In this document: one piece after another, positions 4,158 to 63,972 of the stretch
How the letters are laid out: every line of letters starts with the position of its first letter
Position numbering within the stretch: the stretch's first letter is position 1
DNA from: Myxococcales bacterium
Lineage (GTDB): Bacteria; Myxococcota_A; Polyangia; Nannocystales; Nannocystaceae
Length of the DNA stretch: 64,000 nucleotides
Direction: 5' to 3'
NCBI GenBank assembly: GCA_020633335.1
Contig: JACKDU010000002.1
Coordinates: 122,730 to 186,729 of the forward strand
The notes under the pieces: generated by a model
What the model saw: the letters and a program-made list of their open reading frames with translations, nothing else
Databases searched by the model: none
Told to the model about the DNA's origin: nothing
Position numbers and translations under genes: made by a program

Positions 4158-4173
4158 ATGTCCATATGGACAT
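4158..4173. repeat. perfect 16-bp palindrome ATGTCCATATGGACAT (member of the TGTCC..GGACA family), 18 bp upstream of the HupE-like gene start
   Basis: Read directly. The sequence equals its own reverse complement. GACATGTC and GTCGAC palindromes overlap and follow it. Confidence 0.8.
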
Positions 4174-4190
4174 GTCGACGAGGACATAGG

Positions 4191-5445
4191 GTGCGGGCGC
4201 CGGGATCGAGGCGGGCGCGCGGGCGGCGCAAGCGGCGCGGGCGCGCGAGGCGGGGCCTGGCCCTCGCCCTCGTCGGCGCGGCCCTCGGCCTCGCGCCCTC
4301 GGCCGCCGCCGCCCACAGCGTCGGCCTCTCGCAGGGGAGCTACCGGGTCCGCGGCGCCGAGGTCCAGGTCACCCTGACCTTCGCCCGCGGCGAGCTCCGC
4401 CGCCTGGTCCCCGGCAGCGACCGCGACCGAGATGGCGAGCTCTCCGAGGGCGAGGTGCTCGCCGGCGTCGCCGACCTCGAGGCGCGGGCGCTCGCCGGCG
4501 TAGAGCTCGCCCTCGACGGCCGCCCCTGCGTCGGCGCGCTCGAGCGGGCCGCCCTCACCGAGGAGGACGGCCTCGAGGTGACGATGACCTTCGCCTGCCC
4601 GGCGGCCGGCGAGGCGCTGACGATCACCCTGCCCCTCCTCGGCGAGCTCGGCCCCGGCCACCGCCACGTCGCTCGGGTGATCCCGCCGGGGAGCGACGAC
4701 GCCCGGATCGAGCGGGTGCTCGGGCGGATGCGGCCGCGGGTCGAGGTCGGGCTGGCGCCGCGACCCGCCCGCCCCGGGCCGCGGAGCCGCGCCCACCCGC
4801 GGCGGTCGCCGAGCCCGAGCCCGCGCCGACGCGCCCCGCCGAGGCGCCCGCCCCGCGTCCGAGCGCGGGCCCGAGCGCGAGCGCTGGCCCTACTTCGCCC
4901 TCGGCGTCGAGCACATCCTGATCGGCGCCGATCACCTGGTCTTCCTCCTCGGCCTGGTCCTGGTCCGCGACCGCCTCCGCGGGCGGATCGCCGTGATCAC
5001 GGCCTTCACCGCCGGCCACTCCCTGAGCCTCGCGCTCGCGGCCCTCGGCGCGCTCCTCCTCTCGCCGGCGATCGTCGAGCCGGCGATCGCCGCGTCGATC
5101 ATCTACGTCGGCGTTGAGAACGTGGTCCTTGGGACAGATCGCGAGCAGGGCCGCTGGCGCCTCACCCTCCCCTTCGGCTTCATCCACGGCCTCGGCTTCG
5201 CCGGCGCCCTCGCCGAGGTCGGCCTGCCGCCGGGCGAGGAGGCGCCCGCCCTCGCCCTCTTCAACCTCGGGGTCGAGGCCGGGCAGCTCCTCGCCCTCGC
5301 CCTCCTCCTGCCGCTCCTCGCCGCCCTGGACGCGCTCCCGGGGCTCCGGGCGCGCCCCTGGCGGCGCTGGCTGAGCCTGGCGATCGCCCTCGCCGGCGCG
5401 CTCTGGCTGGTCGAGCGGGTCGCCGGATCGGCGTCCGCCGCCTAG
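4191..5445 (+). CDS. HupE/UreJ-family metal (Ni/Co) transporter with an N-terminal periplasmic extension; reading frame broken twice (about 4760-4860)
   Basis: GTG start with an Arg-rich n-region and signal peptide, then AAAAHS. DRDRDGELSEGE is an EF-hand/dockerin-like acidic loop. The C-terminal part has HupE/UreJ signatures WPYFALGVEHILIGADHLVFLLGL and FNLGVEAGQ. Three frames must be joined to connect these parts (ORFs 4158..5117 and 4993..5445 plus a third frame). Confidence 0.55.
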
Positions 5446-5584
5446 TGCCGCGACCGCGACGTATCGACCCACCTCGCGTGGTCTCGCCGCCGCTGGCGTT
5501 GTTGCTCGTCGGTTGCAGAGGCCCGATCTGCGCCCTCCCGATCCCGGCGCGAGCTGGATCGATACGTCGCGGTCGGGGCACTAG
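5442..5584. repeat. 143-bp element bounded by 26-bp terminal inverted repeats (CTAGTGCCGCGACCGCGACGTATCGA / TCGATACGTCGCGGTCGGGGCACTAG, 25/26 match); MITE-like or long bidirectional terminator hairpin
   Basis: Inverted repeats read directly. The terminal CTAG of each arm contains the stop codon of HupE (5443-5445) and of the M24 peptidase (complement 5581-5583). Because of the mirror symmetry, both flanking ORF-track ORFs begin MPRPRRIDP. Confidence 0.6.
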
Positions 5585-6885
5585 CCGACGCCGAAGGGAT
5601 CCTCGATCGAGCGCGAGAGCGGCCCGAAGACCTCGACGCCCGATGGCGTGATCGCGACGATGTCCTCGATCCGGATCCCGAACTCGCCGGGGACGTAGAT
5701 CCCGGGCTCGTTCGACATCACCATCCCGGGCGCGAGGACGACCTCGGCGCCGCCGACGAGGTAGGGGTCCTCGTGGACCTGGAGGCCGATCCCGTGGCCG
5801 AGGCGGTGGGTGAAGCGGCGGTAGCCGGGGCCGTGGCCGGCGGCGTCGATCACCTGGCGGGCGATCTCGTCGATCGATCCGCCGCTCACCCCGGGGCGCA
5901 TCGCCGCCAGCGCGGCCGCCTGGGCGGCGTGGACGACCTCCCAGGCCGCCCGCAGCTCGGCCGAGGGCTTTCCCGTGAACCAGGTCCGGGTGACGTCGGA
6001 GCGGTAGCCGTGGAGCGAGCCGCCGGTGTCCACCAGGATCGCGTCGCCGGGGCTGAGCACCCGCTCGATGTTGGTCCCGTGGGGGAAGGCCGCGTTCGAG
6101 CCGACCAGGACCAGGGTCCAGACGTCGGTGAGGCCGGCGGCCTCCTGCGCCTCGCGGACCAGCTCGGCGATCGTCGCCTCGCTCATCCCCACCCGGATCT
6201 CGGCGGCCGCCCGCCGCAGCGCCTCCTTGGTCGCCTCCGAGGCCCGCCGCAGGAGCGCGAGCTCGGCCGGGCTCTTGATCATCCGGCAGCCGCTGAGGAT
6301 CCCGGCGTCGATCTCGAAGTGGGTCTGGCGGGCCGCCTGCCGGAGGGCGTCGACGACGAAGAGGCGCATCGCCGGATCGACCGCGACCCGGCCGAGGGCG
6401 GCGAGGCGCGCGGTGATCTGGGTGTAGGGCCCCTCGTGCTCCTCCCAGAGGTGGATCTCCCCCTCGTCGCCGACCCGCTCGCCGAGGGTCCCCGACTCGA
6501 AGGCGGGGCCGAGCCAGAGCGGCGCGCCCTCCACCGGCAGGACGTAGAGGAGCGGGCGCTCGCTCTGCCCCCAGCGGACGCCCGTGAGGTAGTAGAGGCT
6601 GACCCCGGCCTCGAGGACGATCGCGTCGACGCCGATCGCCCGCGCCAGCTCACGGGCGCGCTCACGGCGGGCCGCGTACTCGCTGGCCTGGATCGGCTCG
6701 GCGTCGACGCAGAAGGCGGCGAGGCCGGCGAAGGGGCCCCCACGCGGCGGCGTCTCCCGCGAGAGCTCCTCGTCGGCGGCGCTCCACGCTTGCCGACGGC
6801 CCGCGCAGCTCAGAGCGCCGAACCCGAGCCCGAGGCCGGCGGCGAAGCGGCGACGTGACCAGGGAGGCGCGATAGGATTCTCCAT
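5581..6885 (-). CDS. M24B Xaa-Pro aminopeptidase/creatinase-family peptidase with Tat signal
   Basis: Start MENPIAPPWSRRRFAAGLGLG carries a twin-arginine motif. HRLGHGIGLQVHEDP and SNEPGIY are metal-binding motifs of the M24 family. It is the real C-terminal part of the long track ORF 5581..8337. Confidence 0.8.
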   Translation of the reverse strand: MENPIAPPWSRRRFAAGLGLGFGALSCAGRRQAWSAADEELSRETPPRGGPFAGLAAFCVDAEPIQASEYAARRERARELARAIGVDAIVLEAGVSLYYLTGVRWGQSERPLLYVLPVEGAPLWLGPAFESGTLGERVGDEGEIHLWEEHEGPYTQITARLAALGRVAVDPAMRLFVVDALRQAARQTHFEIDAGILSGCRMIKSPAELALLRRASEATKEALRRAAAEIRVGMSEATIAELVREAQEAAGLTDVWTLVLVGSNAAFPHGTNIERVLSPGDAILVDTGGSLHGYRSDVTRTWFTGKPSAELRAAWEVVHAAQAAALAAMRPGVSGGSIDEIARQVIDAAGHGPGYRRFTHRLGHGIGLQVHEDPYLVGGAEVVLAPGMVMSNEPGIYVPGEFGIRIEDIVAITPSGVEVFGPLSRSIEDPFGVG

Positions 6886-6921
6886 ACCACACGCCGTCGA
6901 CCGGCGGCGCCGAACGAGCCG

Positions 6922-8391
6922 ATGAACGACCGATCCCCCGCCCCGCTCGAGGGCACGCCGCGCGAGCGCGAGGCCTGGCTCGCCGCCGCCGCGGCCTTCG
7001 TCCGCGAGCAGCTCGACAGCCTCGAGGACGCGCCCGCGCAGGGCCTCGTCGGCGCCGAGGCCAACCGCCGCGCCCGCGAGCTGAGCCCGCCGATCGCCGA
7101 GGCGCCGCTCGAGGGCGGGCTCGAGGGCGCGCTGGCGATCCTCCGCCAGGCGATCCCGCTCTCGCTCAACGCCGCCGGCCCCGGCTACCTCGCCTACATC
7201 CCCGGCGGCGGCCTCCCCCTCGCGGCGATCGCCGAGCTGATCGCCGGCGCGACCAACCGCTACACCGGCACCGCCGCGCCCGCGCCCGCGCTCTGCCGCC
7301 TCGAGGCCGACGTCCTCGCCTGGCTCGCCCGCGAGTTCGGCTACGGCCCCGACGCCCGCGGCCTCCTGACCTCGGGGGGCTCGATCGCCAACCTCACCGC
7401 GATCGTCACGGCCCGGGTCCACGCCTTCGGCGACGACGGCGACTACCGCCGGGCGATCGCCTACACCTCGAGCCAGGCCCACCACAGCGTCGCCAAGGCG
7501 CTCCGCCTCGCCGGGATCCCGGCGGCCAACCTCCGCCTGGTCGAGGTCGACGAGGCGCTCGAGCTCCGGCCCGCGGCCCTGCGGGCGGCGATCGCCGCCG
7601 ATCGTCAGGCCGGCGCGCGCCCCTTCCTGGTGATCGCGGCCGCCGGCACCACCAACACCGGCGCCGTCGATCCGCTGCCGGAGCTCGCCGCGATCTGCCG
7701 CGCCGAGGGCCTCTGGCTCCACGTCGACGGGGCCTACGGCGGCGCCTTCGCCCTCAGCCCCCGCGCCCGCGCCCGCCTCGCCGGGATCGACCGCGCCGAC
7801 TCGATCACCTTCGACCCCCACAAGGGGATGTTCCTGCCCTATGGGACAGGTTGTCTCCTGGTCGCCGACGGCCAGCGCCTCGCCCGGGCCCACGCCGGCG
7901 GCGGCGACTACCTCCAGGACCTCGCGTCGCTCGAGGACGAGGGCGAGGCGCCGAGCCCCAGCGCCTACGGCCCCGAGCTCAGCCGCTCCTTCCGCGGCCT
8001 CCGCCTCTGGCTGCCGCTCATCGTCCACGGCGCGGCCGCCTTCCGCGACGCCCTCGACGAGAAGATCGAGCTCGCGGCCGCGATCGAGGCCGGCCTGCGG
8101 GCGCGGATCGCCGCCGGCGCGCCCCTCGAGATCCCGACCCCGACCCGCCTCAGCGTCGTCGCCTTCCGCCTCCGGCGGCGCCCTGGCGAGGCCGCCGACG
8201 CCTGGGATCGCCGCAACCTCGCGCTCCTCGCCGGGATCAACCGCCGCCAGAGCGTGCACCTCTCGAGCACCCGCCTGCCGATCCCCGGGGGCTCGATCAC
8301 CACCCTCCGGGCCTGCGTCCTCTCCTTCCGGACCCACCGCCCGCGGATCGATCGCCTCCTCGCCGACCTCGACGCCGCCCTCGCCGACTAG
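6922..8391 (+). CDS. PLP-dependent group II decarboxylase (aromatic-L-amino-acid/glutamate decarboxylase family)
   Basis: SGGSIANLTAI, and DPHKGMFLPYGTGCLLV with the PLP-lysine in the D-x-HK context. Length is 489 aa. Confidence 0.75.
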   Translation: MNDRSPAPLEGTPREREAWLAAAAAFVREQLDSLEDAPAQGLVGAEANRRARELSPPIAEAPLEGGLEGALAILRQAIPLSLNAAGPGYLAYIPGGGLPLAAIAELIAGATNRYTGTAAPAPALCRLEADVLAWLAREFGYGPDARGLLTSGGSIANLTAIVTARVHAFGDDGDYRRAIAYTSSQAHHSVAKALRLAGIPAANLRLVEVDEALELRPAALRAAIAADRQAGARPFLVIAAAGTTNTGAVDPLPELAAICRAEGLWLHVDGAYGGAFALSPRARARLAGIDRADSITFDPHKGMFLPYGTGCLLVADGQRLARAHAGGGDYLQDLASLEDEGEAPSPSAYGPELSRSFRGLRLWLPLIVHGAAAFRDALDEKIELAAAIEAGLRARIAAGAPLEIPTPTRLSVVAFRLRRRPGEAADAWDRRNLALLAGINRRQSVHLSSTRLPIPGGSITTLRACVLSFRTHRPRIDRLLADLDAALAD

Positions 8392-8403
8392 CGCGCCGGA
8401 GCC

Positions 8404-10695
8404 TCATCCGGGCGGCGGTCGATCGAGCGCGCGCCGGACCGCGCTGGCGAGCGCGTCGAAGGTGAAGGGCTTGTCGAGGACCTCGTCGCCCGGGCCCTCC
8501 AGGTCGACCCCGTCGACGTCGCCGCTGATCAGGAGCACGCGGAGCTCCGGCAAGCGCTCGCGGATCGCCGCCGCCAGGGCCGGCCCCCGGAGCTCCGGCA
8601 TGATCACGTCCGAGACCAGGAGGGCGATCGACGGCCCGATCTCGTCGACGATCTCGAGCGCCTCGGCGGCCCCGCGGGCGGCGACGACCTCGTAGCCGAG
8701 CTTGAGGAGGGCGTCGCGCTCGCTCGCCAGGACCTCGGGATCGTCCTCGACGACGAGCACGCGCTCGCCCGCGCGGGCCCGGGGCGGCGCGGCGACGACC
8801 TCCTCGCCCGCGCCCGCGCCCGCGCCGCGCTCCTCGCCGACGTGGCGCGGGAGGTCGACCCGGAAGGTCGTGCCCGACCCGAGCGAGCTCTCGACCGTGA
8901 TCACCCCGCGGCACTGCTGGACGATCCCGTAGACCGTGGCGAGGCCGAGCCCGACCCCCTTCTTCGCCGACTTGGTCGTGAAGAAGGGCTCGAAGATCCG
9001 CCGGAGGTCGGCCGGCGCGATCCCGGGCCCGTCGTCGTGGACGCTGAGCCGGACGTAGTCCGCGAGCGCGCCGGAGGCCCGCGGATCCGGTCGCCGCACG
9101 CTCTCGACCCGCACGTCGATCCGCCCGCGGCCGGCCATCGCGTCGCGGGCGTTGACGCAGAGGTTCACCAGGATCTGGTCGAGCTGGCCTGGATCGGCGA
9201 GGACCCGCCAAGGCTCCCCCCGACGGGCGAAGCTCAGCCCGATCTCCTCGCCGAGGAGCTGGCGGAGCATCTCGAGCATCCCCTCGACCGCGCCGCCGAG
9301 CTCGATGATCTTGGGGGTCACCTCCTCGCGGCGGGCGAAGCTGAGGAGGCGCCGGACGAGGTCGCTCGAGTGGCGGGCGCGCTCGATGATCCCGCGGACA
9401 TGACGGCTCGCGGGATCGTTCGGCCGCAGCGCGTCGAGCGCGAGCTCCGCCCGCATCGAGATCACCGCGAGGATGTTGTTGAAGTCGTGGACCACCCCGC
9501 CCGCGAGGCGGCCGATCGCCTCCATCTTGTGGCTCTGATCGAGCTCGGCCTGGAGGCGGGCGGCCGCGCGCTCGGCCTCCCGCTGATCGGTGACGTCGAG
9601 CTTCTGGACCAGGATGTCGCCGCCCACGAGCGGCGTGATCACGAGGACGACGTCGGCCTTGCCCCGCCGAGTCGACGCGATGCCGCCGGCCCGTAGCTCG
9701 TCGAAGTCGATCGTCGACTCGAGATAGACCCCCTCACCCGCGGCGATCCGGGCGCGCTGCTCCGCCCGGAGGGCCACCCGTTCGAAGAGGTTGATCCCCC
9801 GCAGCCCGTCGATCCCGTCGACCCCGAAGAGCTTGAGCGCCGCCGGATTCGCCTGGAGCACCCGCCCCTCGCTCGAATAGAGGGTGATCGAGATCGGCGA
9901 CGCTTCGAAGATCTGGCGGAGCGCCTCCTCGCTCCGACGCAGCCGCTCCTCGGCGGCCTTGCGATCGCTGATGTCCTGGACCGCGGCGATCCGGTGGAGG
10001 ACCACCCCGCTCGCGTCCTTGAGCGTGGTGACGTCGACGATCACCGGGAAGCGCGTGCCGTCCTTGCGGACGTGGACCGACTCGAAGGAGTAGTGCCCGC
10101 GGCGGTGGGCCTCGGTGATCTCCGCCGGCAGCGCGGCCCGGACCTCGGGGGCGAAGAGCTCGCGCGGCGGCAGGGCGAGGAGCTCGTCGATCGTGTAGCC
10201 GTGGCTCTCGGCGAAGGCGCCGTTGACCATCTCGACCCGCTGGAAGTCGGCGTTGCCGACGATCAGGGGGAGGCGCGCGCAGAAGAAGGCGTGATCCCAG
10301 GGCCTGGGCGCCGCCTCCTGGTCGCCGATGATCTCGATCGTCCCGCGCACGTCGAGGAGCTCGCCGTCGCCGCTCCAGCGACCGCGCCCGCGGATCCGGA
10401 GGACGCGGCGCCGCCCGCCGATCAGCGCGCCCACCTCGCTCGAGAAGGTGGCGCGATCGCGCTCAAGGCCGACCATCCGGAGGCGATGGGCGAGGCGCTC
10501 GTCGTCGCCCAGGAGCGCCTCGAAGGGAAGATCACCCGGCTGGCCGAAGGCCTGCCCGCGCGCGAGGATCGGAGCGAGGTCTGAGAGCCCCGTCGTCCTC
10601 CCGCTCTGTCGATCCCAGGACCAGGCGCCGACGTCTCCTCCCCCGAGCGCGAGGAGGAGGGCCTCGACGTCACTATCGTCGCCGCTCGCGTGCAT
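8404..10695 (-). CDS. hybrid sensor histidine kinase with PAS domains and C-terminal receiver
   Basis: H-box AGGVVHDFNNIL. The HATPase region carries DDGPGI, GVGLGLATVYGIV and FEPFFTTK. The receiver is VLVVEDDPEV...VSDVIMPEL. Confidence 0.85.
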   Translation of the reverse strand: MHASGDDSDVEALLLALGGGDVGAWSWDRQSGRTTGLSDLAPILARGQAFGQPGDLPFEALLGDDERLAHRLRMVGLERDRATFSSEVGALIGGRRRVLRIRGRGRWSGDGELLDVRGTIEIIGDQEAAPRPWDHAFFCARLPLIVGNADFQRVEMVNGAFAESHGYTIDELLALPPRELFAPEVRAALPAEITEAHRRGHYSFESVHVRKDGTRFPVIVDVTTLKDASGVVLHRIAAVQDISDRKAAEERLRRSEEALRQIFEASPISITLYSSEGRVLQANPAALKLFGVDGIDGLRGINLFERVALRAEQRARIAAGEGVYLESTIDFDELRAGGIASTRRGKADVVLVITPLVGGDILVQKLDVTDQREAERAAARLQAELDQSHKMEAIGRLAGGVVHDFNNILAVISMRAELALDALRPNDPASRHVRGIIERARHSSDLVRRLLSFARREEVTPKIIELGGAVEGMLEMLRQLLGEEIGLSFARRGEPWRVLADPGQLDQILVNLCVNARDAMAGRGRIDVRVESVRRPDPRASGALADYVRLSVHDDGPGIAPADLRRIFEPFFTTKSAKKGVGLGLATVYGIVQQCRGVITVESSLGSGTTFRVDLPRHVGEERGAGAGAGEEVVAAPPRARAGERVLVVEDDPEVLASERDALLKLGYEVVAARGAAEALEIVDEIGPSIALLVSDVIMPELRGPALAAAIRERLPELRVLLISGDVDGVDLEGPGDEVLDKPFTFDALASAVRRALDRPPPG

Positions 10696-10887
10696 CAGCG
10701 CCGCCGCCCTCGAAGCTACCCCGGGCCGCGGCGGGGCTCAACCTCGGACATCCACGCGTTTCTGTGGGCCGACGACCCCGATCGCCCCCGCGCCTCCGCG
10801 CGGCCCTGGGCGGTGACGCCTGTCGGACGCCGCCGACCACGCGATACCCTGCCGCGACTCGAGGCGACCCTCGAAGGAGCGACGACG

Positions 10888-11793
10888 ATGAGCAATGGCA
10901 AGGTAGTTCTGATCACTGGCGCCGGCACCGGCTTCGGCCGCCTCAGCGCCGAGACCCTGGCGAACCACGGCTACACGGTCTTCGCCGGGATCCGCGAGGT
11001 CGACGGCCGCAACGCGGCGACCGCCGCCGAGCTCAAGGCGCACGCGAGCGGCCGGATCCACCCGGTCGAGTTCGACGTCACCAGCGACGCGTCGGTCTCG
11101 GCCGCGATCGCGGAGATCCTCAGCGAGGGCGGCGGCCGCCTCGACGTCGTCGTCAACAACGCGGGCGTCGCCACCTTCGGCCTCGCCGAGGCCTTCACGC
11201 CGGCGCAGCTCCAGGCCCTCTTCGAGGTCAACGTGATCGGCCCGCAGCGGGTGAACCGGGCGGCCCTGCCGACGATGCGCGCCCAGGGCTCGGGCCTCCT
11301 GATCCAGATCACCAGCGGCCTCGGTCGGATCATCTTCCCGGTGATGGGGATCTACTCGGCGAGCAAGTTCGCGGTCGAGGCGCTCGCCGAGGCCTACCGC
11401 TACGAGCTCGCGCCGATCGGCGTCGACTCGGTGATCATCCAGCCGGGCGCCTTCCCGACCGGGATCCTCACGCGGACGATGTACGGGGTCGAGGGCGAGC
11501 GCGCCCAGGGCTACGGCGACAACGCCGCGCTCCCCGAGATCATCGGCCAAGCGATGGGCGGGATGCTCAACGGCCCCAACCCACCGGACCCCCAGGACGT
11601 CGCCGACGCGGTCCTGCGGCTCTGCGAGACCCCGACCGGCGAGCGGCCGCTGCGGACCGTCGTCGACAACCTCTCGGGCGACGGCCCGCGGGCGATCAAC
11701 AACCTCACCGATCAGATCCAGGCCGGGATGTTCACCGGCATGGGGATGGGCGGCCTCCTCCAGCCCCGCGGCGGCGACAAGCCGGCGAGCTGA
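10888..11793 (+). CDS. short-chain dehydrogenase/reductase (SDR)
   Basis: AAGGAG RBS 7 nt upstream of ATG. KVVLITGAGTGFG Rossmann motif, NNAG, and the YSASK catalytic motif. Confidence 0.85.
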   Translation: MSNGKVVLITGAGTGFGRLSAETLANHGYTVFAGIREVDGRNAATAAELKAHASGRIHPVEFDVTSDASVSAAIAEILSEGGGRLDVVVNNAGVATFGLAEAFTPAQLQALFEVNVIGPQRVNRAALPTMRAQGSGLLIQITSGLGRIIFPVMGIYSASKFAVEALAEAYRYELAPIGVDSVIIQPGAFPTGILTRTMYGVEGERAQGYGDNAALPEIIGQAMGGMLNGPNPPDPQDVADAVLRLCETPTGERPLRTVVDNLSGDGPRAINNLTDQIQAGMFTGMGMGGLLQPRGGDKPAS

Positions 11794-11836: not shown

Positions 11837-11841
11837 TCAAG

Positions 11842-55587: not shown

Positions 55588-56402
55588 GCGAGCCCCCTTC
55601 AAAGATCTCGCTCCTGCTCCTGACGGAAGACAGCGGCAAGGAGGCGGAGTCTGCGCTCCGCGCCTTTCTCGACCGCCTGCTCCGTCGAGTCGTCGCAGGC
55701 GCCAGCGTCGATGCTGGGAGCTGGGATCCCGCCGAAGGCGATGTCCGCGCCGTTGTGCGTGGCAACGCGTGGAAGAGCCCGGCACGGAGGGAGCTCGTTC
55801 AGCTTCGTCAGTACATCGCGGCCAAGCTCCGTAGCCCCGGCGGCTTCGTCTTCTTCCATTTTGACGGCGACCGACCCTACCGCGACCGTGAAGCCAGCGA
55901 GAACATCAAGAAATTCAACGAGCTGATCCAGAAGCACGTCCGGGACATCCTCGGAGGTCCTCCGCCGATGCGCCGACCTCGGAGACACGCTTCGGCGCCC
56001 CCAGTACCGACGGCTCCCCTCATGGAGAAGCTGATCCCGATCGTCCCCTTCTACAGCGTTGAGGCCTGGTACTTCCAGAACACGGAGCGGGCGCTCGCCC
56101 ACTGCCTGGCCAATCCGAAGTGCCGCGGGGGATGCCAGGCCACGCTCGCTACCTGGACGGCGGACCGAGGTGCGCTCGACGAGCTCATCAAGCCGAAAGA
56201 AGCGCTCTGCTTCCGCGCGGGGCACAACCTCGACCTCGCACGCACCTCCTATCCGCTCGACAGCGTCCTCGCCGCGCGGAAGTCACTCCATGATCTCGTC
56301 GCTCAGCTCTCGGCATGTGCACCGCTGCGCGAGGCGCTCGAAGCCACGCGCCCCCCCTGGTGGCACGAGCCCGAGCCCCCCAGGGGTCAAGCGGACACAT
56401 GA
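55584..56402 (+). CDS. partner protein with TOPRIM-like acidic motifs; candidate nuclease component
   Basis: The GTG start overlaps the ATPase stop by 4 nt (GTGA). LLLLTEDSGKEAE places a Glu after a hydrophobic strand, as in the TOPRIM E. FVFFHFDGDRPY provides the DxD. Lower GC, like its partner. Confidence 0.55.
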   Translation: MSEPPSKISLLLLTEDSGKEAESALRAFLDRLLRRVVAGASVDAGSWDPAEGDVRAVVRGNAWKSPARRELVQLRQYIAAKLRSPGGFVFFHFDGDRPYRDREASENIKKFNELIQKHVRDILGGPPPMRRPRRHASAPPVPTAPLMEKLIPIVPFYSVEAWYFQNTERALAHCLANPKCRGGCQATLATWTADRGALDELIKPKEALCFRAGHNLDLARTSYPLDSVLAARKSLHDLVAQLSACAPLREALEATRPPWWHEPEPPRGQADT

Positions 56403-56509
56403 CGTCGGCGCGCTTCCGCGCGCCGCTTGACCCGCCGCCGCGCGCCGACGCCCCGCCCACGCGTCACCGTTGACCTCGCCCCCGGGCCTCGATACTCGGA
56501 GGTCCGCGC

Positions 56510-59503
56510 GTGGCGTCGACGTTCACAGGCAGCGGCGATCCCGAGGACTCGCTGGCCATCACCCAGGAGGCGTCGCTGCATACGCCGACCTTCGGGGTCG
56601 ACGACACCCTCGCCTCGCCGCGCGAGGTGACCCTCCCCGGCGGCCTCCGTGACGAGCGCGACGACCTCGCGCGGGGCGATCTGATCGGCCGCTACGTGAT
56701 CCTCGATCGCCTCGGCGCCGGCGGCATGGGGGTGGTCTACGCCGCCTTCGATCCCGAGCTCGATCGCAAGGTGGCGATCAAGCTCCTCCACTCGAGCGCC
56801 GCCGCCGAGAGCGAGGGCAGCCGCATGCGCCTCCTCCGCGAGGCCCAGGCGCTCGCCAAGCTCAGCCACCCCAACGTCGTCACGATCCACGACGTCGGCA
56901 CCTTCGGCGATCACGTGTGGCTGGCGATGGAGCACGTCGAGGGCCGCACCCTCGGGGCCTGGCGGCGCGCGCGGGCGCGGCGCTGGCAGGAGATCCTGGC
57001 GGTCGTCCTCGACGCCGGCCGCGGGCTCGCGGCGGCCCACGCCGCCGGCCTGATCCACCGCGACGTCAAGCCGGAGAACATCATGGTCGGCGTCGACGGC
57101 CGGGTGCGGATGATGGACTTCGGCCTCGCCCGGGCGACCGGCGGCGACGACGAGCCCCCAAGGACCCTGCCGGAGCGGGCGCTCGCCACCAGCGGCGACC
57201 TCGCGGTCTTGTCGCTGCGGATCACCCAGGCGGGCTCGATGATGGGGACCCCGGCCTACATGTCCCCGGAGAGCCTGAGCGGGGCCGAGGCCGACGCCCG
57301 CTCCGACCTCTTCGGCTTCTGCGCGACCCTCTGGGAGGCGCTCTACGGCGAGACACCCTTCGCCGGCCGGACCCTCAGCGAGCTCACCACCAACGTCGAG
57401 GGCGGCAAGCTACGGCCGATCCCGCGGGGCTCGACGGTCCCCGGCTGGGTGCGCCGCCTCTGCGAGCGAGGCCTCGCCGCCGACCCCGGGCAGCGGCCAC
57501 CCTCGATCGACGCGCTCCTCGCCGACTTCGCCCGCGGGCAGGGCCGGAGCCGGCGCTGGCGCTGGATCGCCGTCGCCGGCGCGCTGGCGCTGGCGAGCGG
57601 CGCCGGGCTCGGCTGGCGGGCGATCGAGCTCGAGGCCAAGCGCGCCCGCTGCGAGGCCGCCGGCGCGGCGATCGACGAGGCCTGGAACGACGCCGCCCGC
57701 GAGCGCCTCCGCCGCGGGCTCCTCGACTCCGGGGCGCCGATCGCCGAGGACGTCAACCGGCGCATGCACCCCTGGCTCGACGCCTGGACCGCCTCGTGGC
57801 GCGAGACCCGGAGCGTCCTCTGCCGGGCCGCCGAGATCGACGGCGCCTGGTCGCCCGACCTCTACGAGCGCGCCCAGAGCTGCCTCGACGAGCAGCGCGA
57901 CGGCCTCGTCGGCCTCCTCGAGGGGCTCGCCGACGCCCCGCCCGGATCGGTGTGGTACGCGGTGCCGATCGCCGCCGGCCTCCCGCGGGTCGACGCCTGC
58001 ACTGAGCGCGCGCTCCTCGAGCGCCGACCGCCGCCGCCCCCCGAGGCGGTGCGCGATCAGGTCGCCGAGCTCCGACGCAGGCTCATGGTCGTCATCGGCC
58101 TCCACGAGGCCGGCCGCTTCACCGAGGCGATGACCCGGGCCGAGGCGCTCCTCGCCGACGTCCAGGCGCTCGGCGATCCGCCCCTCGAGATCCAGGTGCG
58201 GGTCCAGGTCGGCGGCCTCGCCTCCTCCCTCGGCGACCTCGAGCGGGCCGAGGCGATGCTCACCGACGTCTTCGTCGACGCCGGCGCCCTCGGGATGGAC
58301 GAGGTCGCGGTCGACGCGGCCAACCGCCTGATCTTCACCGTCGGCTACCGGGCCGCCCGCCACCGCGAGGGCCTCCTCTGGAGCCGCGCCGCCGAGATGC
58401 TGATCCGCCGCCTCGGCCAGGCCAAGCGCTCGCGCGGGGCGACGGTCCTCAATTCGGTCGCCAACATCCACTACGCGCTCGGCGACTACGAGGCCTCGCA
58501 GCGCCTCTTCGAGGAGGCGCTGGCGATCAACGAGGCGGAGCTCGGCGAGTCCCACCCGCTCGTCGCCGACAACCTCACCAACCTCGCCGACGTCTTCTAC
58601 GCCCGCGGCGAGCTCGACCGCGCCGAGGCGACCTACGCCCGCAGCCTGGCGATCAGCGCCGAGACCCTCGGCCCCCTCCACCCCAACCGCGGCTACGCGC
58701 TCAACAACCTGGCGACCGTCCACTACAGCCGCGGCGAGCTCGAGGAGGCGCGGCCCCTCCTCGAGCAGGCGCTGACGATCTTCGAGGCGACCTACGGCCC
58801 CGACAACCCCGAGCTCGCCAACACCCTGAACAACCTCGCCAACATCGACCGGGTGAGCGGCGCCCTCGACCGCGCGCGCGCCCGCTACGGCCGCGCGGTC
58901 GCCCTCATCGAGGGGAGCCTCGGCGGCGAGCACCCGGCGCTGGCGACCCCCCTCGACAACCTCGGCACCGTCCACTGGCTGGCCGGCGAGCCCGACGAGG
59001 CGGCGCCCCTCTTCGCGCGGGCGCTGCAGATCCGCGAGGCCGCTCTCGGGCCCGAGCACCCCGAGGTCGCGACCTCGCTCCTCCACCTCGCCGAGGTCCA
59101 GCTCGCCGACGGCGACCTCGCGGCGGCCTCCGCCGGCTTCGCCCGCGCGCGGGCGATCCGCGAGGCCGCCCTCGGGGCCGAGAACGCCGGCGTCGGCGAG
59201 GCGCTCGCCGGCCTCGCCGAGGTCGCGCTCGCCGAGGGCCGGGTCGTCGACGCCCGCGCCGGCCTCGAGGACGCGCTCACCCGCCTGAAGGGCGACGCGC
59301 CGTCGACGATCGCGGCCGCCGCCCGCGCCCGCTTCGCCCTCGCCCGCGCGCTCTCGCGGCCGCCGGCGGCCGATCCGACCCGCGCCCGCGCGCTCGCCGA
59401 GGCCGCCCGCGACGCCCTCCGGGAGAGCCCGAGCGAGCGCCGCGCGCTCCTCGTGATCGAGGCCTGGCTCCGCGACCAGGGCGGGTCCGCGGCCAAGGGC
59501 TAG
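56510..59503 (+). CDS. Ser/Thr protein kinase with C-terminal TPR array
   Basis: GAGGMGVVY, VAIKLL, HRDVKPENIMV, DFGLA, TPAYMSPE, TM segment WIAVAGALALA, then about 10 TPR-like repeats (LNNLA...Y..G). Confidence 0.85.
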   Translation: MASTFTGSGDPEDSLAITQEASLHTPTFGVDDTLASPREVTLPGGLRDERDDLARGDLIGRYVILDRLGAGGMGVVYAAFDPELDRKVAIKLLHSSAAAESEGSRMRLLREAQALAKLSHPNVVTIHDVGTFGDHVWLAMEHVEGRTLGAWRRARARRWQEILAVVLDAGRGLAAAHAAGLIHRDVKPENIMVGVDGRVRMMDFGLARATGGDDEPPRTLPERALATSGDLAVLSLRITQAGSMMGTPAYMSPESLSGAEADARSDLFGFCATLWEALYGETPFAGRTLSELTTNVEGGKLRPIPRGSTVPGWVRRLCERGLAADPGQRPPSIDALLADFARGQGRSRRWRWIAVAGALALASGAGLGWRAIELEAKRARCEAAGAAIDEAWNDAARERLRRGLLDSGAPIAEDVNRRMHPWLDAWTASWRETRSVLCRAAEIDGAWSPDLYERAQSCLDEQRDGLVGLLEGLADAPPGSVWYAVPIAAGLPRVDACTERALLERRPPPPPEAVRDQVAELRRRLMVVIGLHEAGRFTEAMTRAEALLADVQALGDPPLEIQVRVQVGGLASSLGDLERAEAMLTDVFVDAGALGMDEVAVDAANRLIFTVGYRAARHREGLLWSRAAEMLIRRLGQAKRSRGATVLNSVANIHYALGDYEASQRLFEEALAINEAELGESHPLVADNLTNLADVFYARGELDRAEATYARSLAISAETLGPLHPNRGYALNNLATVHYSRGELEEARPLLEQALTIFEATYGPDNPELANTLNNLANIDRVSGALDRARARYGRAVALIEGSLGGEHPALATPLDNLGTVHWLAGEPDEAAPLFARALQIREAALGPEHPEVATSLLHLAEVQLADGDLAAASAGFARARAIREAALGAENAGVGEALAGLAEVALAEGRVVDARAGLEDALTRLKGDAPSTIAAAARARFALARALSRPPAADPTRARALAEAARDALRESPSERRALLVIEAWLRDQGGSAAKG

Positions 59504-59549
59504 ACCTGTCCATCAAGACAGGTATTAAAAACATGTCCCTTCGGACATG
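59504..59549. repeat. two palindromes ACCTGTC-CATCAA-GACAGGT and CATGTCC-CTTC-GGACATG flanking an AT-rich TATTAAAAA; likely bidirectional terminator
   Basis: Read directly in the 55-bp gap between convergent stops 59503 and 59559. On the minus-strand transcript the second hairpin is followed by UUUUUAAU. Confidence 0.65.
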
Positions 59550-59558
59550 ATCGTGTGA

Positions 59559-60347
59559 TCACTCGATCGTCGCCGGCGCGTCGTCGACGGGATCGCCAGG
59601 GAGCCCAGACCAGAGGCGGACCGCCAGCCCGGCCGCCGGCGGCCGCCGGAGCGCGAGGGCGACCGGGTGGGCCTCCCCGAGATCGAAGCGGCGGAAGCTC
59701 CAGCTCGCGGGGTCATCCTCGAGATCGGGCGCGAAGTCGATCCGGATCGCCGCCCCGGGCGCGCCGACCTCGAACCAGAAGCGATCGAGCCCGAGGGAGA
59801 TGCCGATCCCGCGGGCCTTGATGTAGGCCTCCTTGAGCGTCCAGTAGTCGAAGAAGCGGCGGGCGAGCGCCTCCCCCTCCAGCCCCTCGAGGGCCGCGAC
59901 CTCCGGGGCCGCGAAGAAGTGATCGGCGATCCCCCGGAGGTTGCCCCGGCGCCTGCGGGCCTCGACGTCGACGCCGATCTCGCCGCGCGCGAGGGCGAGG
60001 ACCGCCCGCCCGTCGGTGTGCGAGAGGTTGAAGCGGAGCCCCTCGAGGCCGTGGGCGGCCGCCTGCGCCGCCTCGATCTCCGGGCGCCCGTGCGCGCCGA
60101 TCGAGAAGCGCCAGGCCGCCGGCTCGATCACCGGCGCGTAGCGGGTGAGCGTCCCCCGCACCAGCGCCCGGGCGATCAGGAAGGCGTGGCGGTGACGCTC
60201 GAAGATGAAGCGCTGGCGCCGGGCCTCCTCGTCGGGGCTGAGCCAGGCGGCGTAGCGGGCGAGGCGCTCGGCGGCGGTCAGCCCCTCCGGATCGACCTCC
60301 CAGACGTGGATCTCCCCCTCCCCGAGCTCGATCGCCGACTCCTGCAT
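59559..60347 (-). CDS. Sfp-type 4'-phosphopantetheinyl transferase
   Basis: FNLSHT, GVDVE, WTLKEAYIKARG. Confidence 0.8.
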   Translation of the reverse strand: MQESAIELGEGEIHVWEVDPEGLTAAERLARYAAWLSPDEEARRQRFIFERHRHAFLIARALVRGTLTRYAPVIEPAAWRFSIGAHGRPEIEAAQAAAHGLEGLRFNLSHTDGRAVLALARGEIGVDVEARRRRGNLRGIADHFFAAPEVAALEGLEGEALARRFFDYWTLKEAYIKARGIGISLGLDRFWFEVGAPGAAIRIDFAPDLEDDPASWSFRRFDLGEAHPVALALRRPPAAGLAVRLWSGLPGDPVDDAPATIE

Positions 60348-60420
60348 GGCCGCGCCCCGCCCCCCTCCGCGACTTGCGCGGGCCCGCGGGCGCCGACAAG
60401 GTACCATCCAGCGCTCGCCC

Positions 60421-61503
60421 ATGCCCGCCCCAGACAAGCTCGGGATCCTCCTGGTCAACCTCGGCACCCCGGACGCGCCCGAGACCGCCGCCGTCCGCCG
60501 CTACCTCGCCGAGTTCCTGAGCGACCCCCGGGTGATCGACATCCACCCGGTCGCCCGCTGGCTCCTCCTCCACCTGATCATCCTCCGGGTGCGGCCGGCG
60601 AAGTCCGCCCACGCCTACCGGGCGATCTGGGGCCCCGAGGGCTCGCCGCTCCTGGTCCACGGGCGGGCGCTGACGGCCGCCCTCGCGGAGCGCCTGCCCG
60701 CGCACCCGGTCGTCCTGGCGATGCGCTACGGCGCGCCGTCGATCGACGCCGGCCTCCGCGAGCTCGAGGCCGCCGGCTGCGATCGGATCCTCGTCGCCCC
60801 CCTCTTCCCCCACTACGCCTCGTCGTCGACCGGCTCCGCCCTCGAGGCGGTCTACCGAGCGGCGGGCGAGCGCCTCACCACCCCCTTCCTCCACGTCCTG
60901 CCGCCCTTCTACGACCACCCGGCGTTCATCGACGCGCTCGCCCACCAGGGCGCGCCGCTCCTCGCCGAGCTCCAGCCCGACCACGTCGTCTACTCGTTCC
61001 ACGGGCTCCCGGAGCGCCACCTCACCAACGGCGATCCGAGCGGCGCCCACTGCCTGAAGCGCGAGGCCTGCTGCGCGGCGATCACCGCGGTCAACCGGAG
61101 CTGCTACCGCGCCCAGTGCTACGCGACCGCGCGCGAGCTCGACGCCCGCCTCGGCCTCGGCGCCGGGGCGAGCACCGTCTGCTTCCAGTCGCGCCTCGGC
61201 CGGACCCCGTGGATCCGCCCCTACACCGACGACGTCCTCCTCGAGCTCGCGCAGCGCGGGGTCAAGCGCCTCGCGGTCTTCTGCCCGGCCTTCGTCGCCG
61301 ACTGCCTCGAGACCCTCGAGGAGATCGGGATCCGGGCGCGCGAGACCTTCAAGGCCGCCGGCGGCGAGGAGCTCCGCCTGGTCCCCGGGCTCAACGCCGA
61401 GCCGGTCTGGGTCGACGCGCTGGCGACGATCCTCCGCGAGCACCTCGGCGAGGACGCGCCGGCCCGCCACCACCGCAGCCCCTCGCTGGCGATGGCGACC
61501 TGA
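60421..61503 (+). CDS. hemH: ferrochelatase
   Basis: ILLVNLGTPD, LAMRYGAPSI, PLFPHYASSSTGS, HGLPE; standard ferrochelatase motifs. Confidence 0.85.
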   Translation: MPAPDKLGILLVNLGTPDAPETAAVRRYLAEFLSDPRVIDIHPVARWLLLHLIILRVRPAKSAHAYRAIWGPEGSPLLVHGRALTAALAERLPAHPVVLAMRYGAPSIDAGLRELEAAGCDRILVAPLFPHYASSSTGSALEAVYRAAGERLTTPFLHVLPPFYDHPAFIDALAHQGAPLLAELQPDHVVYSFHGLPERHLTNGDPSGAHCLKREACCAAITAVNRSCYRAQCYATARELDARLGLGAGASTVCFQSRLGRTPWIRPYTDDVLLELAQRGVKRLAVFCPAFVADCLETLEEIGIRARETFKAAGGEELRLVPGLNAEPVWVDALATILREHLGEDAPARHHRSPSLAMAT

Positions 61504-61504
61504 G

Positions 61505-61831
61505 ATGGCCGGCGACGACGACGACAACGACGACGACGCGGCGAAGATGCCCGCGCTGCCGGAGGACGCCCGCCCCTACCGCAGGACCGCGACCTTCGAC
61601 GCCGCGACCCTGCCCGCCGGCCTCCGCGGCCGCCACACCACCCGCGAGGGGACCTGGGCGCGGATCGTCGTCCTCGAGGGCGCGGTGACCTACCGGATCC
61701 TCGAACCGACCCCGCGCGACCTCGTCCTCACGCCCGCGCGCGTCGGCGTGGTCGAGCCGGGCGTCGCCCACCAGCTCGTCGGCGACGGGCCCTTCGCGCT
61801 CTTCGTCGAGTTCTGCCGGCGGGGCGACTAG
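61505..61831 (+). CDS. DUF1971-like small cupin-fold protein, coupled to hemH
   Basis: ATG 1 nt after the hemH stop. GTWARIVVLEGAVTY...HQLVGDGPFALFVEF pattern. Confidence 0.4.
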   Translation: MAGDDDDNDDDAAKMPALPEDARPYRRTATFDAATLPAGLRGRHTTREGTWARIVVLEGAVTYRILEPTPRDLVLTPARVGVVEPGVAHQLVGDGPFALFVEFCRRGD

Positions 61832-61838
61832 CGCTCGC

Positions 61839-62792
61839 CTACTTCGCGCAGATCAGCGGCGAACCGTGGACGCAGAGGTGGATCTCGGTGTCGCACTCGA
61901 AGCCGCTCGCGCACTCACCCGTGCAGGTCTGCCCGAGCGTCGGCAACGCCTTGCAGAGGAGATCGTCGGGCTGACAGACGAAGTCCACGGCGCAGGGGTG
62001 GGTGTTGCACTCGTCGCCGTCCTTGCCCGGCAGGACGCAGATCCCACCGTAGGTGTCGCAGACCAGGACGGGGTCGCAGAGGTGCGCGAAGCAGTCCTCG
62101 TCGATCCCCGAGGTCTCCGTGCAGACCCCGCCGAAGCAGCCGTAGGGCTCCTTGCAGGGGACCGTGCCGCAGCTCTGGCCGAGGGTCGGCCGGACCGCGC
62201 AGGTGAGCGTCGCGAGATCGCAGTGGAGCCCGTCGGCGCAGGGCTGGAGCCCGCAGGACTCGCCGACCGCCGCCGGCGCGCAGGGATCGATGCACACCGC
62301 GCTCCCGCTCTTCGGACAGACGAGCCCCTGGGCGCAGTCGCTGACCCGCTCGGAGACGTAGGTGCAGGGCGCCCCGGGGCCGAGCTTGCCGTAGCCGTAC
62401 TGGCAGAGCTCGCAGGCGAGCCCGGCGTCGGCGACCTCCTCCGGGGTGACGCAGCCGAAGGCGGGATAGGGGAGCTGGCTGGCGAAGCAGTCGGCGTCCG
62501 GGGTGAGCCCCGCGGCCTTCACCTGGCTCTCGAAGGTCCCCCAGTCGAAGGCGTAGGCGTCGACGCAGGCCTTCTGGCTGGGGAAGCCGAAGTCCTCGCA
62601 CGCGCAGGAGAAGAGGCCGGCGCAGGCCTGCTCAAAGGAGGCCGGCGTCGCCCCCTCGGTGTCGCCGCCGCCATCGTCACCGCCGCTGCAGCCGCTGACC
62701 AGCGCGAGGCTGAGGGTGAAGGTGAAGGTGAAGGCGAGGGTCCGGAGCGCGCGCCCCCGCGTCGCCAACGTCACGTCACGTCGTTGATCCAC
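61839..62792 (-). CDS. Cys-rich lipoprotein
   Basis: Lipobox LVSGCSG; about 40 cysteines in repeated C-x-x-G-x-x-C modules. Confidence 0.6.
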   Translation of the reverse strand: MDQRRDVTLATRGRALRTLAFTFTFTLSLALVSGCSGGDDGGGDTEGATPASFEQACAGLFSCACEDFGFPSQKACVDAYAFDWGTFESQVKAAGLTPDADCFASQLPYPAFGCVTPEEVADAGLACELCQYGYGKLGPGAPCTYVSERVSDCAQGLVCPKSGSAVCIDPCAPAAVGESCGLQPCADGLHCDLATLTCAVRPTLGQSCGTVPCKEPYGCFGGVCTETSGIDEDCFAHLCDPVLVCDTYGGICVLPGKDGDECNTHPCAVDFVCQPDDLLCKALPTLGQTCTGECASGFECDTEIHLCVHGSPLICAK

Positions 62793-62946
62793 CGGACGAT
62801 CCTACCCGGCCGCCGCCAGCCCGCGCGGGGGCCGACGGCGATCGCAACGGCAACCCCGCGTCGCTTCGCCTGCCCCTGGCGCGCTCGCAGGACTCCCCGG
62901 GGTCGGCTCACAGGCGCGCGAGGGCGCGAGATCCCGCCCCCGCGAG

Positions 62947-62964
62947 TGTCCTGAATAGTGGACA
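62947..62964. repeat. palindrome TGTCC-TGAATAGT-GGACA upstream of the small membrane protein gene
   Basis: Read directly; same half-sites as the family but with an 8-bp spacer. Confidence 0.55.
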
Positions 62965-63003
62965 GATCGCGGCTGCGGCCGGGTTTGGAGCGACCGCCGT
63001 GCT

Positions 63004-63396
63004 ATGGATCCGCGGATGGAGCACCGGATCCGGACCAACCCGATCTTCGCGATCTTCCTGGTGGCCGCGAGCGCCTTCATCCTCGGGGTCTCGGCGCTCA
63101 CCGGGCCCTCGGTCAACACGATCACTGGCGTCGTCCTCCTGGTCCTCGGGATCCTCCAGCTCAGCCGACCGCTCATCGTCGTCACCGAGGGCGAGATCCA
63201 ATTCCGCAACCTCCTCGGGATGACCCTGCGGCGGGTCCCCTACACCCTCGACAACCTCGACGTCAGCGACGAGCTCCCGAAGATCGACGGCCAGCCGGTC
63301 AAGGGCTTCTCGACGTGGGCCCTCGACGGCAAGGCGCTCGCCGGCTTCCGCGAGGAGATCCTCAGCCGCCAGGCGAGCCGCGACCCCCAGCCCTGA
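63004..63396 (+). CDS. small membrane protein (two TM helices; bacterial PH-like)
   Basis: PIFAIFLVAASAFILGV and GVVLLVLGILQL hydrophobic helices. Confidence 0.45.
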   Translation: MDPRMEHRIRTNPIFAIFLVAASAFILGVSALTGPSVNTITGVVLLVLGILQLSRPLIVVTEGEIQFRNLLGMTLRRVPYTLDNLDVSDELPKIDGQPVKGFSTWALDGKALAGFREEILSRQASRDPQP

Positions 63397-63544
63397 GCCG
63401 GCGGCGCGTTCACGGCCCTGCGCCGAGCTTCGGAAATTTCGACGACCTCCGGAACCTCGGCCGCGGGCCGCTGTCTTGGCCGCCAGAGGGGCTGGGGAGG
63501 CGCTCGCGGTGCGCGGGCGACCCGGGGCCCCAGGAGGTCTTGTC

Positions 63545-63934
63545 ATGCGCCGTGCCATCACTGCGGCGCCGTGGGTGCTCTTCGCCTGCGGTGTCCTCGT
63601 CGCTCATTTCGCCCCGTCGCCGGTCGCCGCCGCGCCGTCGTCCGCGGCCGCGCCGGTCGCCGCCTCCGACGCGGAGTGCGTCGACGTCGAGGCCCAGCCC
63701 GGGGGCTCCGGCATGGCCATCCGGATCCACAACGGCTGCACCTACGACGTCCGCTGCGAGGTCTCCTGGAGCGTCCGCTGCGAGGGCGACGACGCGGTCA
63801 AGGCGAGCAAGCGCCACAACTTCGACCTCACCAGCGGCGGCGACCGCCACCTCCTCGCCTCCGGCGAGGCCTGCGGCGACGCGATCTGGGAGATCGGCGA
63901 CGAGGCCTGGGAGTGCGTCCAGCAGCGGCGCTAG
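63545..63934 (+). CDS. small secreted Cys-rich protein
   Basis: Signal peptide MRRAITAAPWVLFACGVLVAHFA; 8 cysteines in the mature part. Confidence 0.45.
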   Translation: MRRAITAAPWVLFACGVLVAHFAPSPVAAAPSSAAAPVAASDAECVDVEAQPGGSGMAIRIHNGCTYDVRCEVSWSVRCEGDDAVKASKRHNFDLTSGGDRHLLASGEACGDAIWEIGDEAWECVQQRR

Positions 63935-63950
63935 CCGGCGCGCGCTGGAT

Positions 63951-63972
63951 ATCCTGTCTATCAGGACAGGAT
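63951..63972. repeat. palindrome ATCCTGTC-TATCAG-GACAGGAT, 17 bp after the stop
   Basis: Read directly; perfect 8-bp arms. Confidence 0.75.

Follow-up and report, generated by a model that had tools for sequence, protein, structure and literature searches.

Myxobacteria with 11-13 Mb genomes of 72% GC contain almost no recognisable intrinsic terminators, which raises the question of how their transcripts end; it is posed in concrete form by a 64,000-nucleotide (nt) stretch of a Nannocystaceae metagenome-assembled genome (Myxococcales bacterium, contig JACKDU010000002.1, positions 122,730 to 186,729; hereafter the window), in which short palindromes with TGTC and GACA arms recur between genes. 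An earlier note, made from the letters alone, had described them as a dispersed family at gene 3′ ends, of the kind known as repetitive extragenic palindromic (REP) sequences and bacterial interspersed mosaic elements (BIMEs). They are best explained as a family of short palindromic elements confined to one lineage, that of Nannocystis and related Nannocystaceae; the family is built from a 10-bp near-palindrome in a strict 14-nt register, and we lean towards a role for it as stem-loops at the 3′ ends of transcripts.

The family is genuine and exceeds chance in the window itself. The pattern TGTC-N(4-10)-GACA matches 14 times against 2.75 expected, a count reached by none of 100 shuffled versions, and TGTCC-N(4-8)-GGACA matches five times against 0.13 expected. 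When every 4-mer W was counted as W-Nk-rc(W) for k = 0-12 across the window, TGTC at k = 6 emerged as the second strongest outlier (11 observed, 0.26 expected); at every other spacing from N0 to N12, TGTC..GACA gives 0 or 1 match, which is the chance level. The spacing between TGTC and GACA is therefore fixed. The N6 copies start at 4159, 4173, 11820, 15968, 26060, 45345, 50327, 50373, 59507, 59534, and 63955; an additional copy with one mismatch (TATC..GACA) lies at 50299, and a degenerate neighbour unit at 63972. A position weight matrix (PWM) trained on related genomes returned 16 hits of at least 10 bits, against 0.35 expected, comprising the same 12 intergenic sites and four weak intragenic ones. 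Family density in the window, whose GC content is 72-77%, amounts to 0.17 copies per kb. An Rfam scan of both strands of the window gave no matches at the gathering score, and a tRNA scan found none.

These counts bear out the over-representation of a dispersed palindrome family claimed by the earlier note, and all the sites that it listed were located in the window. Its variable spacer of 4 to 8 bp, in contrast, is an artefact of how the core was delimited: the TGTC-to-GACA spacer is 6 in 11 copies, and the wider range arose because the fifth base pair (C/G) was sometimes counted as stem and because three chance matches (31358, 54692, and 62947) were included. Most of the listed sites are genuine, with 62947 (N10) a misfit and with 15968 and the second copy at 4173 missed. 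The matches at 31358 (N5) and 54692 (N4) were rejected as family members, as they lie outside the family geometry, at spacings found at chance frequency. The similarities reported between copies stand: the copies at 26060 and 45345 have their long arms in common, inverted relative to each other and enclosing the loops CGTGAG and TTCACG, and the shared arms ACCTGTC..GACAGGT (11817 and 59504) and TTCGGACATGA (50305 and 59540) are both present.

The building block of the family is the 10-bp near-palindrome GGRCATGYCC, followed by 4 nt. Blocks follow one another at a strict 14-nt period, as pairs in most cases and in arrays of six at most. As any two adjacent blocks are reverse complements, a single strand can form a hairpin with 8-10 bp of stem and a loop of 4 nt; the two-unit form can be written GGACATGTCC-N4-GGACATGTCC, with a half-site consensus of (G)(R)C(A/C)TGTC(C). 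Outward of position -4, complementarity between the flanks is at chance level only, and the typical copy is therefore no long palindrome; the stems of 15-18 bp at 26060 and 45345 are exceptions. A long-hairpin REP was accordingly rejected as the typical form, given that the outer arms pair at chance level only. The half-site CATGTCC is 38 times commoner than permuted 7-mers in intergenic DNA, where it reaches 3.46 per kb versus 0.24 per kb in coding sequence, and 76% of these half-sites have a partner (at least 4/7 matches) at exactly N4, which holds for no other spacing. Intergenic distances from CATG to CATG peak at 14, 28, 42, 56, and 70 bp, with 187, 96, 62, 27, and 10 pairs, respectively, over a background of about 3. 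The loops, formed by the central 4 nt, were examined for stable tetraloops and proved heterogeneous, with a weak YYRR bias only. Three spacers, CTCACG, CCCGAG, and CCTTCG, recur in the loci. Inverted doublets are also seen, as are larger tandem repeats of 42 and 65-73 bp with one motif each. Intergenic examples of the latter lie in loci L004 (981-1290), L098 (3986-4130), L055 (567-640), and L079 (7710-7800), with repeat lengths of 42 bp (7 copies), 66-68, 65, and 73 bp.

An exact scan for CATGTCC-N4-GGACATG, with one genome per species, located the family taxonomically. At least 120 loci were retrieved, and among those listed about 60 come from about a dozen Nannocystis or Nannocystaceae assemblies (N. 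pusilla, N. exedens, N. punicea, N. bainbridge, N. radixulma, N. sp. RBIL2, and several metagenome-assembled genomes, MAGs), the remaining listed loci being single chance matches in unrelated taxa. In 60 Nannocystis-type 8-kb blocks (464 kb, 72% GC), TGTC-N6-GACA occurs 198 times, 64 of these being seeds, and TGTC..GACA at any other spacing occurs 0-7 times each; 60 unrelated blocks (424 kb) contain only 3 non-seed copies. Leaving out the seeds, each of six cultured Nannocystis species has 0.26-0.39 copies per kb, and Nannocystis-type myxobacteria carry roughly one copy per 3-6 kb. For genomes of 11-13 Mb this would amount to a few thousand copies, by extrapolation from blocks picked for carrying a copy.

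The element has been retained over considerable divergence. For the window protein encoded at 25086-26027, homologs named Nannocystaceae, Nannocystis, or Nannocystales are only about 40-50% identical; no homolog at all exceeds 58%, and window genes share 69-73% nucleotide identity with Nannocystis loci. Since the same core is found despite such divergence, it has been kept across a deep branch. The window aldo/keto reductase (44248-45303) has, beyond its 100% self-match, next matches of at most 68% identity, and exact look-ups of window proteins returned either two short Logan contigs 99.9% identical to the window or nothing. Covariation among orthologs of the window's own copies was consequently rejected as an approach for want of suitably close homologs. 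An orthologous pair from N. sp. RBIL2 (L109) and a Nannocystis MAG (L121), with genes 75% identical, retains its array right behind the shared stop codon, with different spacers and with 6 units in the former versus 4 in the latter. Preservation of the array and of its unit sequence, with turnover of the details, fits selection on the unit combined with local duplication and decay.

Where the copies sit relative to genes was assessed with our own gene calls, made from third-position GC and then with a codon log-likelihood model, because lists of open reading frames (ORFs) are uninformative at such GC content. All 12 window copies are intergenic by these calls, and the motif is present in five of the seven convergent gaps that measure at least 50 bp (11794-11890, 26028-26111, 45304-45376, 50291-50411 with three copies, and 59504-59558 with two); the copy at 63955 comes after a + strand gene. 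Genes beside window copies are functionally unrelated, encoding a Ser/Thr kinase-TPR protein, a phosphopantetheinyl transferase (PPTase), an aldo/keto reductase, a short-chain dehydrogenase, a pectin acetylesterase, an AcrB-type pump, DciA, and a ferrochelatase. In a larger sample of 528 kb, with occupancy counted for gaps of at least 40 bp, convergent gaps hold 4.95 copies per kb (48 of 73 occupied), tandem gaps 1.4 (42 of 159), and divergent gaps 0.77 (12 of 84), as compared with 0.09 copies per kb of coding sequence. These densities confirm the proposed enrichment at gene 3′ ends, chiefly between convergent genes. Most copies lie within about 40 nt of stop codons: copies in convergent gaps have the nearer stop codon at a median of 20 nt, and the upstream stop is nearer than the next start for 39 of 62 copies in tandem gaps.

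Whether the units act by pairing with each other or as separate protein half-sites can be approached through their variable positions. Between neighbouring units, the R/Y positions (3 and 8 of each unit) covary, with complementarity seen 97 times vs 78.8 expected (p = 0.0015) and 116 times vs 93.6 (p = 0.0002), as exemplified by GGACATGCCC paired with GGGCATGTCC, and R/Y complementarity within a unit falls below expectation (68 vs 82 and 69 vs 86). Covariation between units combined with anti-correlation within them is what inter-unit base pairing predicts, unlike independent palindromic dimer sites. A gap-free alignment of 136 two-unit elements, tested over a 14-pair stem, gave in-register pairing in 69% of cells vs 22-47% with the partner slid, and 192 cells changed on both sides vs 156 ± 12, a value that none of 500 shuffles reached. 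Pairing at the four outermost positions is at chance, which sets the stem at about 10 bp; flank positions -1, -3, -6, and -8 are complementary above chance. We conclude that a single-strand hairpin is under constraint, on statistics that copying within subfamilies could inflate. The preference for a hairpin over a transcription-factor operator, already expressed by the earlier note, is thus favoured by covariation between units; the argument given for it at the time, variable spacing, was wrong, as the spacing is strictly fixed.

On balance, the family probably provides stem-loops at transcript 3′ ends, a putative role assigned by analogy with REP/BIME sequences or with the "Tuberculosis Rho-independent terminator" (TRIT) of Mycobacterium. 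As the element is an inverted repeat, transcripts of either strand would receive the same 3′ stem-loop, which would stop or pause RNA polymerase and/or block 3′-to-5′ exonucleases, such that mRNA 3′ ends are defined and stabilised; the models for this role are REP/BIME in enterobacteria and the proposed action of TRIT in mycobacteria. A sequence-specific protein partner, either a termination or processing factor or an enzyme that spreads the element, is likely because the stem sequence has been kept, beyond what pairing demands, across several species and a distant relative. The phased arrays would arise by local tandem duplication. More tentatively, and as a possibility short of an expectation, the GGRCAUGYCC duplex could be the site of a dedicated putative protein conserved in Nannocystaceae, with the phased arrays as its loading platforms, that acts in sequence-specific 3′-end formation or in control of DNA topology at convergent genes and largely replaces U-tract terminators.

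Canonical termination signals leave room for such a role. A consensus terminator scan covering 40 kb of the window (1-20000 and 44001-64000) placed canonical hairpin-plus-T terminators at chance level. The sole convincing one, and the sole family copy flagged as terminator-like, is 59549-59532 on the - strand, where TTTTTAAT comes next. With canonical terminators at chance, the family hairpins are the main 3′-end feature. Adjoining some copies, at times between two hairpins, are AT-rich patches (TTTTTAAA, ATTAAAAA) that are striking at 72% GC; they were seen at 59524-59531 in the window and near positions 7290 of L059, 262 of L083, 4080 of L081, and 2390 of L068. Such patches could serve as U-tracts for one strand.

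Several observations nevertheless weigh against stem-loops acting at RNA 3′ ends. No transcription-oriented U-tract or T-run was found at the elements; downstream T content is at most 26% and mirrors upstream A content, the flanks being symmetric. Mycobacterial RNA polymerase shows no in vitro termination at hairpins without U-tracts (PMC3993855), and this result together with the missing U-tract makes plain intrinsic termination doubtful. Sense-strand mismatches in tandem gaps comprise 47 G.U and 42 A.C, and given this lack of a G.U excess a DNA hairpin or cruciform would also be possible. The strict 14-nt phasing, which includes unpaired middle units, is not needed for simple hairpin function. 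Subfamilies spread by copying could account for part of the covariation, and 14% of divergent gaps are occupied by copies. Of the terminator function originally proposed, the presence of hairpins at 3′ ends therefore stands; what these hairpins lack is the U-tract that canonical intrinsic terminators need. Within the 3′ stem-loop reading, a barrier to 3′-exonucleases or a factor-dependent signal is at least as likely as simple intrinsic termination.

A different account sees the units as double-stranded DNA sites for an abundant dimeric or oligomerising protein, with the 14-bp-phased arrays as platforms for cooperative binding; candidates would be a nucleoid-associated protein, a gyrase-type topology factor, or a roadblock where convergent transcription collides. 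The fixed spacing, the conserved half-sites, the non-conserved central 4 nt with their symmetric YY|RR bias, the absence of G.U strand asymmetry, and a stem sequence kept across species instead of drifting by compensatory change would all be expected of such sites. The array phasing in particular, held even through units without a pairing partner, keeps this account alive and would fit cooperative protein binding on DNA; in E. coli, BIMEs bind gyrase and IHF. We regard it as unlikely nonetheless, since variable positions covary between units and anti-correlate within them, a subset of copies extends its stem to 15-18 bp with unrelated sequence, and no candidate protein was identified. Operators of an ordinary transcription-factor regulon are far less probable still, to the point of being very improbable, although a fixed-spacing dyad of 14-20 bp is what they would offer and ATGT-N8-ACAT matches 7 times in the window against 0.1 expected. 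We take the core to fit a PadR-type pattern, ATGT-N8-ACAT, and ACCTGTC-N6-GACAGGT to resemble LuxR-type boxes. Operators were rejected on position, convergent gaps having 6 times the copy density of divergent gaps, which contain promoters (4.95 vs 0.77 per kb), and on the covariation of the arms; an extrapolated copy number in the thousands per genome and functionally unrelated neighbouring genes likewise disagree with a regulon.

The family could also be selfish, a non-autonomous mobile element of the type of REP sequences and their hairpin-forming doublets (REPINs) or of miniature inverted-repeat transposable elements (MITEs), copied by a REP-associated tyrosine transposase (RAYT)-like or other transposase, in which case the 3′ location would reflect tolerance of insertion. 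High copy number, restriction to one lineage, subfamilies with shared arms and loops (26060/45345, and the three recurrent spacers), inverted doublets together with tandem arrays of 14, 42, and 65-73 bp, and unit numbers that differ between orthologous sites are all in keeping with mobility. Copy-and-paste spread, however, would not leave loops mostly unrelated between copies, and a core kept at 40-50% protein and 69-73% nucleotide identity argues for long-term constraint. The elements also lack a GTAG or CGTC tag, the long-arm subfamily pattern has 0 matches in genome and metagenome collections, and 528 kb contained no RAYT-like ORF, albeit with an unverified probe of low power. A mobile origin thus seems quite improbable to us, and stem-loops at transcript 3′ ends remain the reading that we prefer.

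The copies found in the window are collected in the table. The RNA hairpins predicted for them have folding energies of -10 to -33 kcal/mol and z of -0.5 to -7.5, and most have stems of 5-10 bp, long arms being the exception. The two long-stem copies belong to one subfamily in opposite orientation. The long-arm pattern CCGATGNNCATGTC-N6-GACATGNNCATCGG gave 0 matches in genome contigs and 0 in metagenome contigs, and these two copies are therefore not demonstrable as a dispersed subfamily. The copy at 15965-15984 is an exception to the 3′-end rule and the only window copy in a divergent region.

Table. Family copies and related hairpins in the 64-kb window, with predicted RNA folding and PWM scores.
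Element	Coordinates	Gene context	Predicted fold and score
Three-unit array in 14-bp register, AGAGATGTCC-atat-GGACATGTCG-acga-GGACATAGGG	4154-4191	6 nt past stop codon at 4148, directly ahead of next + strand coding signal; co-directional genes	-16.6 kcal/mol, z -2.6; 29.0 and 18.2 bits
Single hairpin ACCTGTC-tctttc-GACAGGT	11817-11836	Convergent gap 11794-11890	20.8 bits
Copy AGATGTCtcctcgGACATGT	15965-15984	Divergent/5′ region, - gene 14991-15815 to + ORF 16082-16423	z -0.5; 24.9 bits
Long-stem copy, about 18 bp pairing around TGTCC-gtga-GGACA	26046-26087	Convergent gap 26028-26111	-32.7 kcal/mol, z -7.5
Long-stem copy CCGATGGCCATGTC-ttcacg-GACATGGCCATCGG	45335-45368	Convergent gap 45304-45376	-30.5 kcal/mol, z -5.6
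Three-copy cluster: 50299 (TATC..GACA, one mismatch), 50327, 50373	50297-50388	Convergent gap 50291-50411	
Hairpin ACCTGTCcatcaaGACAGGT	59504-59523	1 nt past stop of Ser/Thr kinase-TPR gene 56510-59503	22.7 bits
Hairpin CATGTCCcttcGGACATG	59532-59549	3′ of PPTase gene 59559-60467(-)	z -4.3 (- strand); 28.0 bits
Hairpin ATCCTGTCtatcagGACAGGAT with adjoining degenerate unit TGTCtgatcgGCCA	63951-63985	Starts 17 nt past stop at 63934	z -3.0; 18.0 bits
Doubtful member, TGTCC/GGACA tip, 8-nt loop	62940-62972	Divergent gap upstream of 63004-63396	z -4.3
Motif-like hairpin ACGATCCTGTGcttgagGACAGGATCGT, one core mismatch	28946-28975	Inside called gene 28562-29464(-)	z -3.2; 13.4 bits

The spacing of the doubtful hairpin at 62940-62972 occurs at chance frequency both in the window and in Nannocystis loci. 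The called gene around 28946-28975 has no Pfam domain, and the hairpin is either an intragenic copy or a sign that the gene was miscalled. Weak intragenic matches of the form CCTG(A/C)CC-N4-GGGACAGG lie at 390, 7835, and 36991 and score 10-11 bits.

Other features of the window were noted in passing. Across 4158-5445, the third-position GC signal shifts frame near 4790-4820, from ORF 4158-5117 to 4843-5445 (HupE/UreJ domain), and the second frame has no start codon before 4993 in the ORF list; a frameshift, a sequencing error, or a pseudogene could be responsible. The convergent gap at 5446-5580, which lacks the motif, holds an inverted repeat (CGCGACCGCGACGTATCGA / TCGATACGTCGCGGTCG) with arms of about 17-20 bp some 90 nt apart and an RNA fold of -83.8 kcal/mol (z -6.2). 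An island of lower GC content at 54000-56400 (0.64 vs about 0.73) encodes an AAA_21/AAA_15-type ATPase (54349-55587) and an adjacent 272-aa protein without a Pfam match (55584-56402), and looks like an acquired two-gene module of defence type.

The motif marks about two-thirds of convergent junctions in the sampled Nannocystis blocks, which were picked for containing a copy, and it is a landmark for annotating the ends of genes and operons. It also gives a testable handle on termination or mRNA stabilisation in a group important for natural products; should it turn out to have a sequence-specific partner, a new factor for termination or processing would come within reach. Evidently, a REP-like element can consist of self-complementary 10-mers in strict 14-nt register and do without the GTAG/CGTC tags thought typical.

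Searches of the literature for REP, RAYT, or palindromes in Nannocystis or other myxobacteria turned up no relevant paper, the element being undescribed there, and a search on GGACATGTCC yielded nothing on bacteria, most of the papers being about p53. The unit GGRCATGYCC matches the half-site consensus of vertebrate p53, RRRCWWGYYY, presumably by coincidence. Comparison with known systems begins with intrinsic (Rho-independent) terminators, with which the family shares a stable stem-loop just downstream of the stop codon; it differs from them in lacking the 7-9 nt U-tract (with the exception of 59532-59549 on the - strand) and in having a stem whose sequence is conserved, not arbitrary. Inverted pairs of DNA uptake sequences (DUS, or uptake signal sequences, USS) in terminators of Neisseria and Haemophilus, reportedly described by Kingsford in 2007, are likewise formed from a short lineage-specific word that gives 3′-end hairpins. 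Uptake sequences, though, also abound within genes and in single copy, in contrast to half-sites of which 76% are paired at exactly N4 and to a coding density about 50 times below that of convergent gaps. On these grounds, and given 3.46 intergenic vs 0.24 coding half-sites per kb, a DNA uptake sequence was rejected.

REPs are extragenic palindromes of 20-40 bp with a GTAG or CGTC tag, the GTAG class being linked to RAYT transposases (PMC3733652). The Nannocystis element resembles REP/BIME sequences as a short palindromic repeat within that size range, its two-unit hairpin being 24 nt, in its high copy number and extragenic location, frequently at gene 3′ ends or between convergent genes, and in the roles in termination and mRNA stabilisation that have been proposed. 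It also forms regular arrays, with neighbour distances of 14, 28, 42, 56, and 70 only, in which alternation of orientation is unassessable because the units are self-complementary. Unlike in REPs, each 10-nt unit is a near-palindrome in its own right, loop and linker share a fixed length of 4 nt that results in the strict 14-nt period, the loops are not conserved, and the core is conserved across genera, not species-specific. The tags were sought in the 16-nt flanks, where GTAG/CTAC occurs in 0.7% and CGTC/GACG in 8-9%, at or below the intergenic background. For RAYT, a phmmer search with an unverified probe against six-frame ORFs of the 528 kb gave no match, in a sample of about 4% of one genome and with low power. 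The REP/BIME label originally given to the family thus holds by analogy, in size, copy number, location, and clustering; membership in REP proper is not supported, the GTAG/CGTC tag being absent.

The closest conceptual relative is TRIT, with a likeness of kind only, not of compared sequence. TRIT is present in 147 copies per genome, around position -8 and overlapping the stop codon, and its authors inferred a duplex-binding factor, itself unknown (PMC3152330). Both elements belong to a high-GC lineage poor in canonical terminators, form a bidirectional palindromic hairpin conserved in sequence and structure, are tied to gene termini, and are confined to one lineage. Extrapolation makes the Nannocystis element about 10-30 times more abundant than TRIT; its place is downstream of the stop codon (at a median of 20 nt from the nearer stop in convergent gaps), and it forms phased multi-unit arrays. 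The description that suits it best is that of a REP/TRIT-like family, hitherto undescribed and specific to Nannocystaceae, whose 14-nt modular architecture is unusual and whose putative role at transcript 3′ ends is suggested by these parallels.

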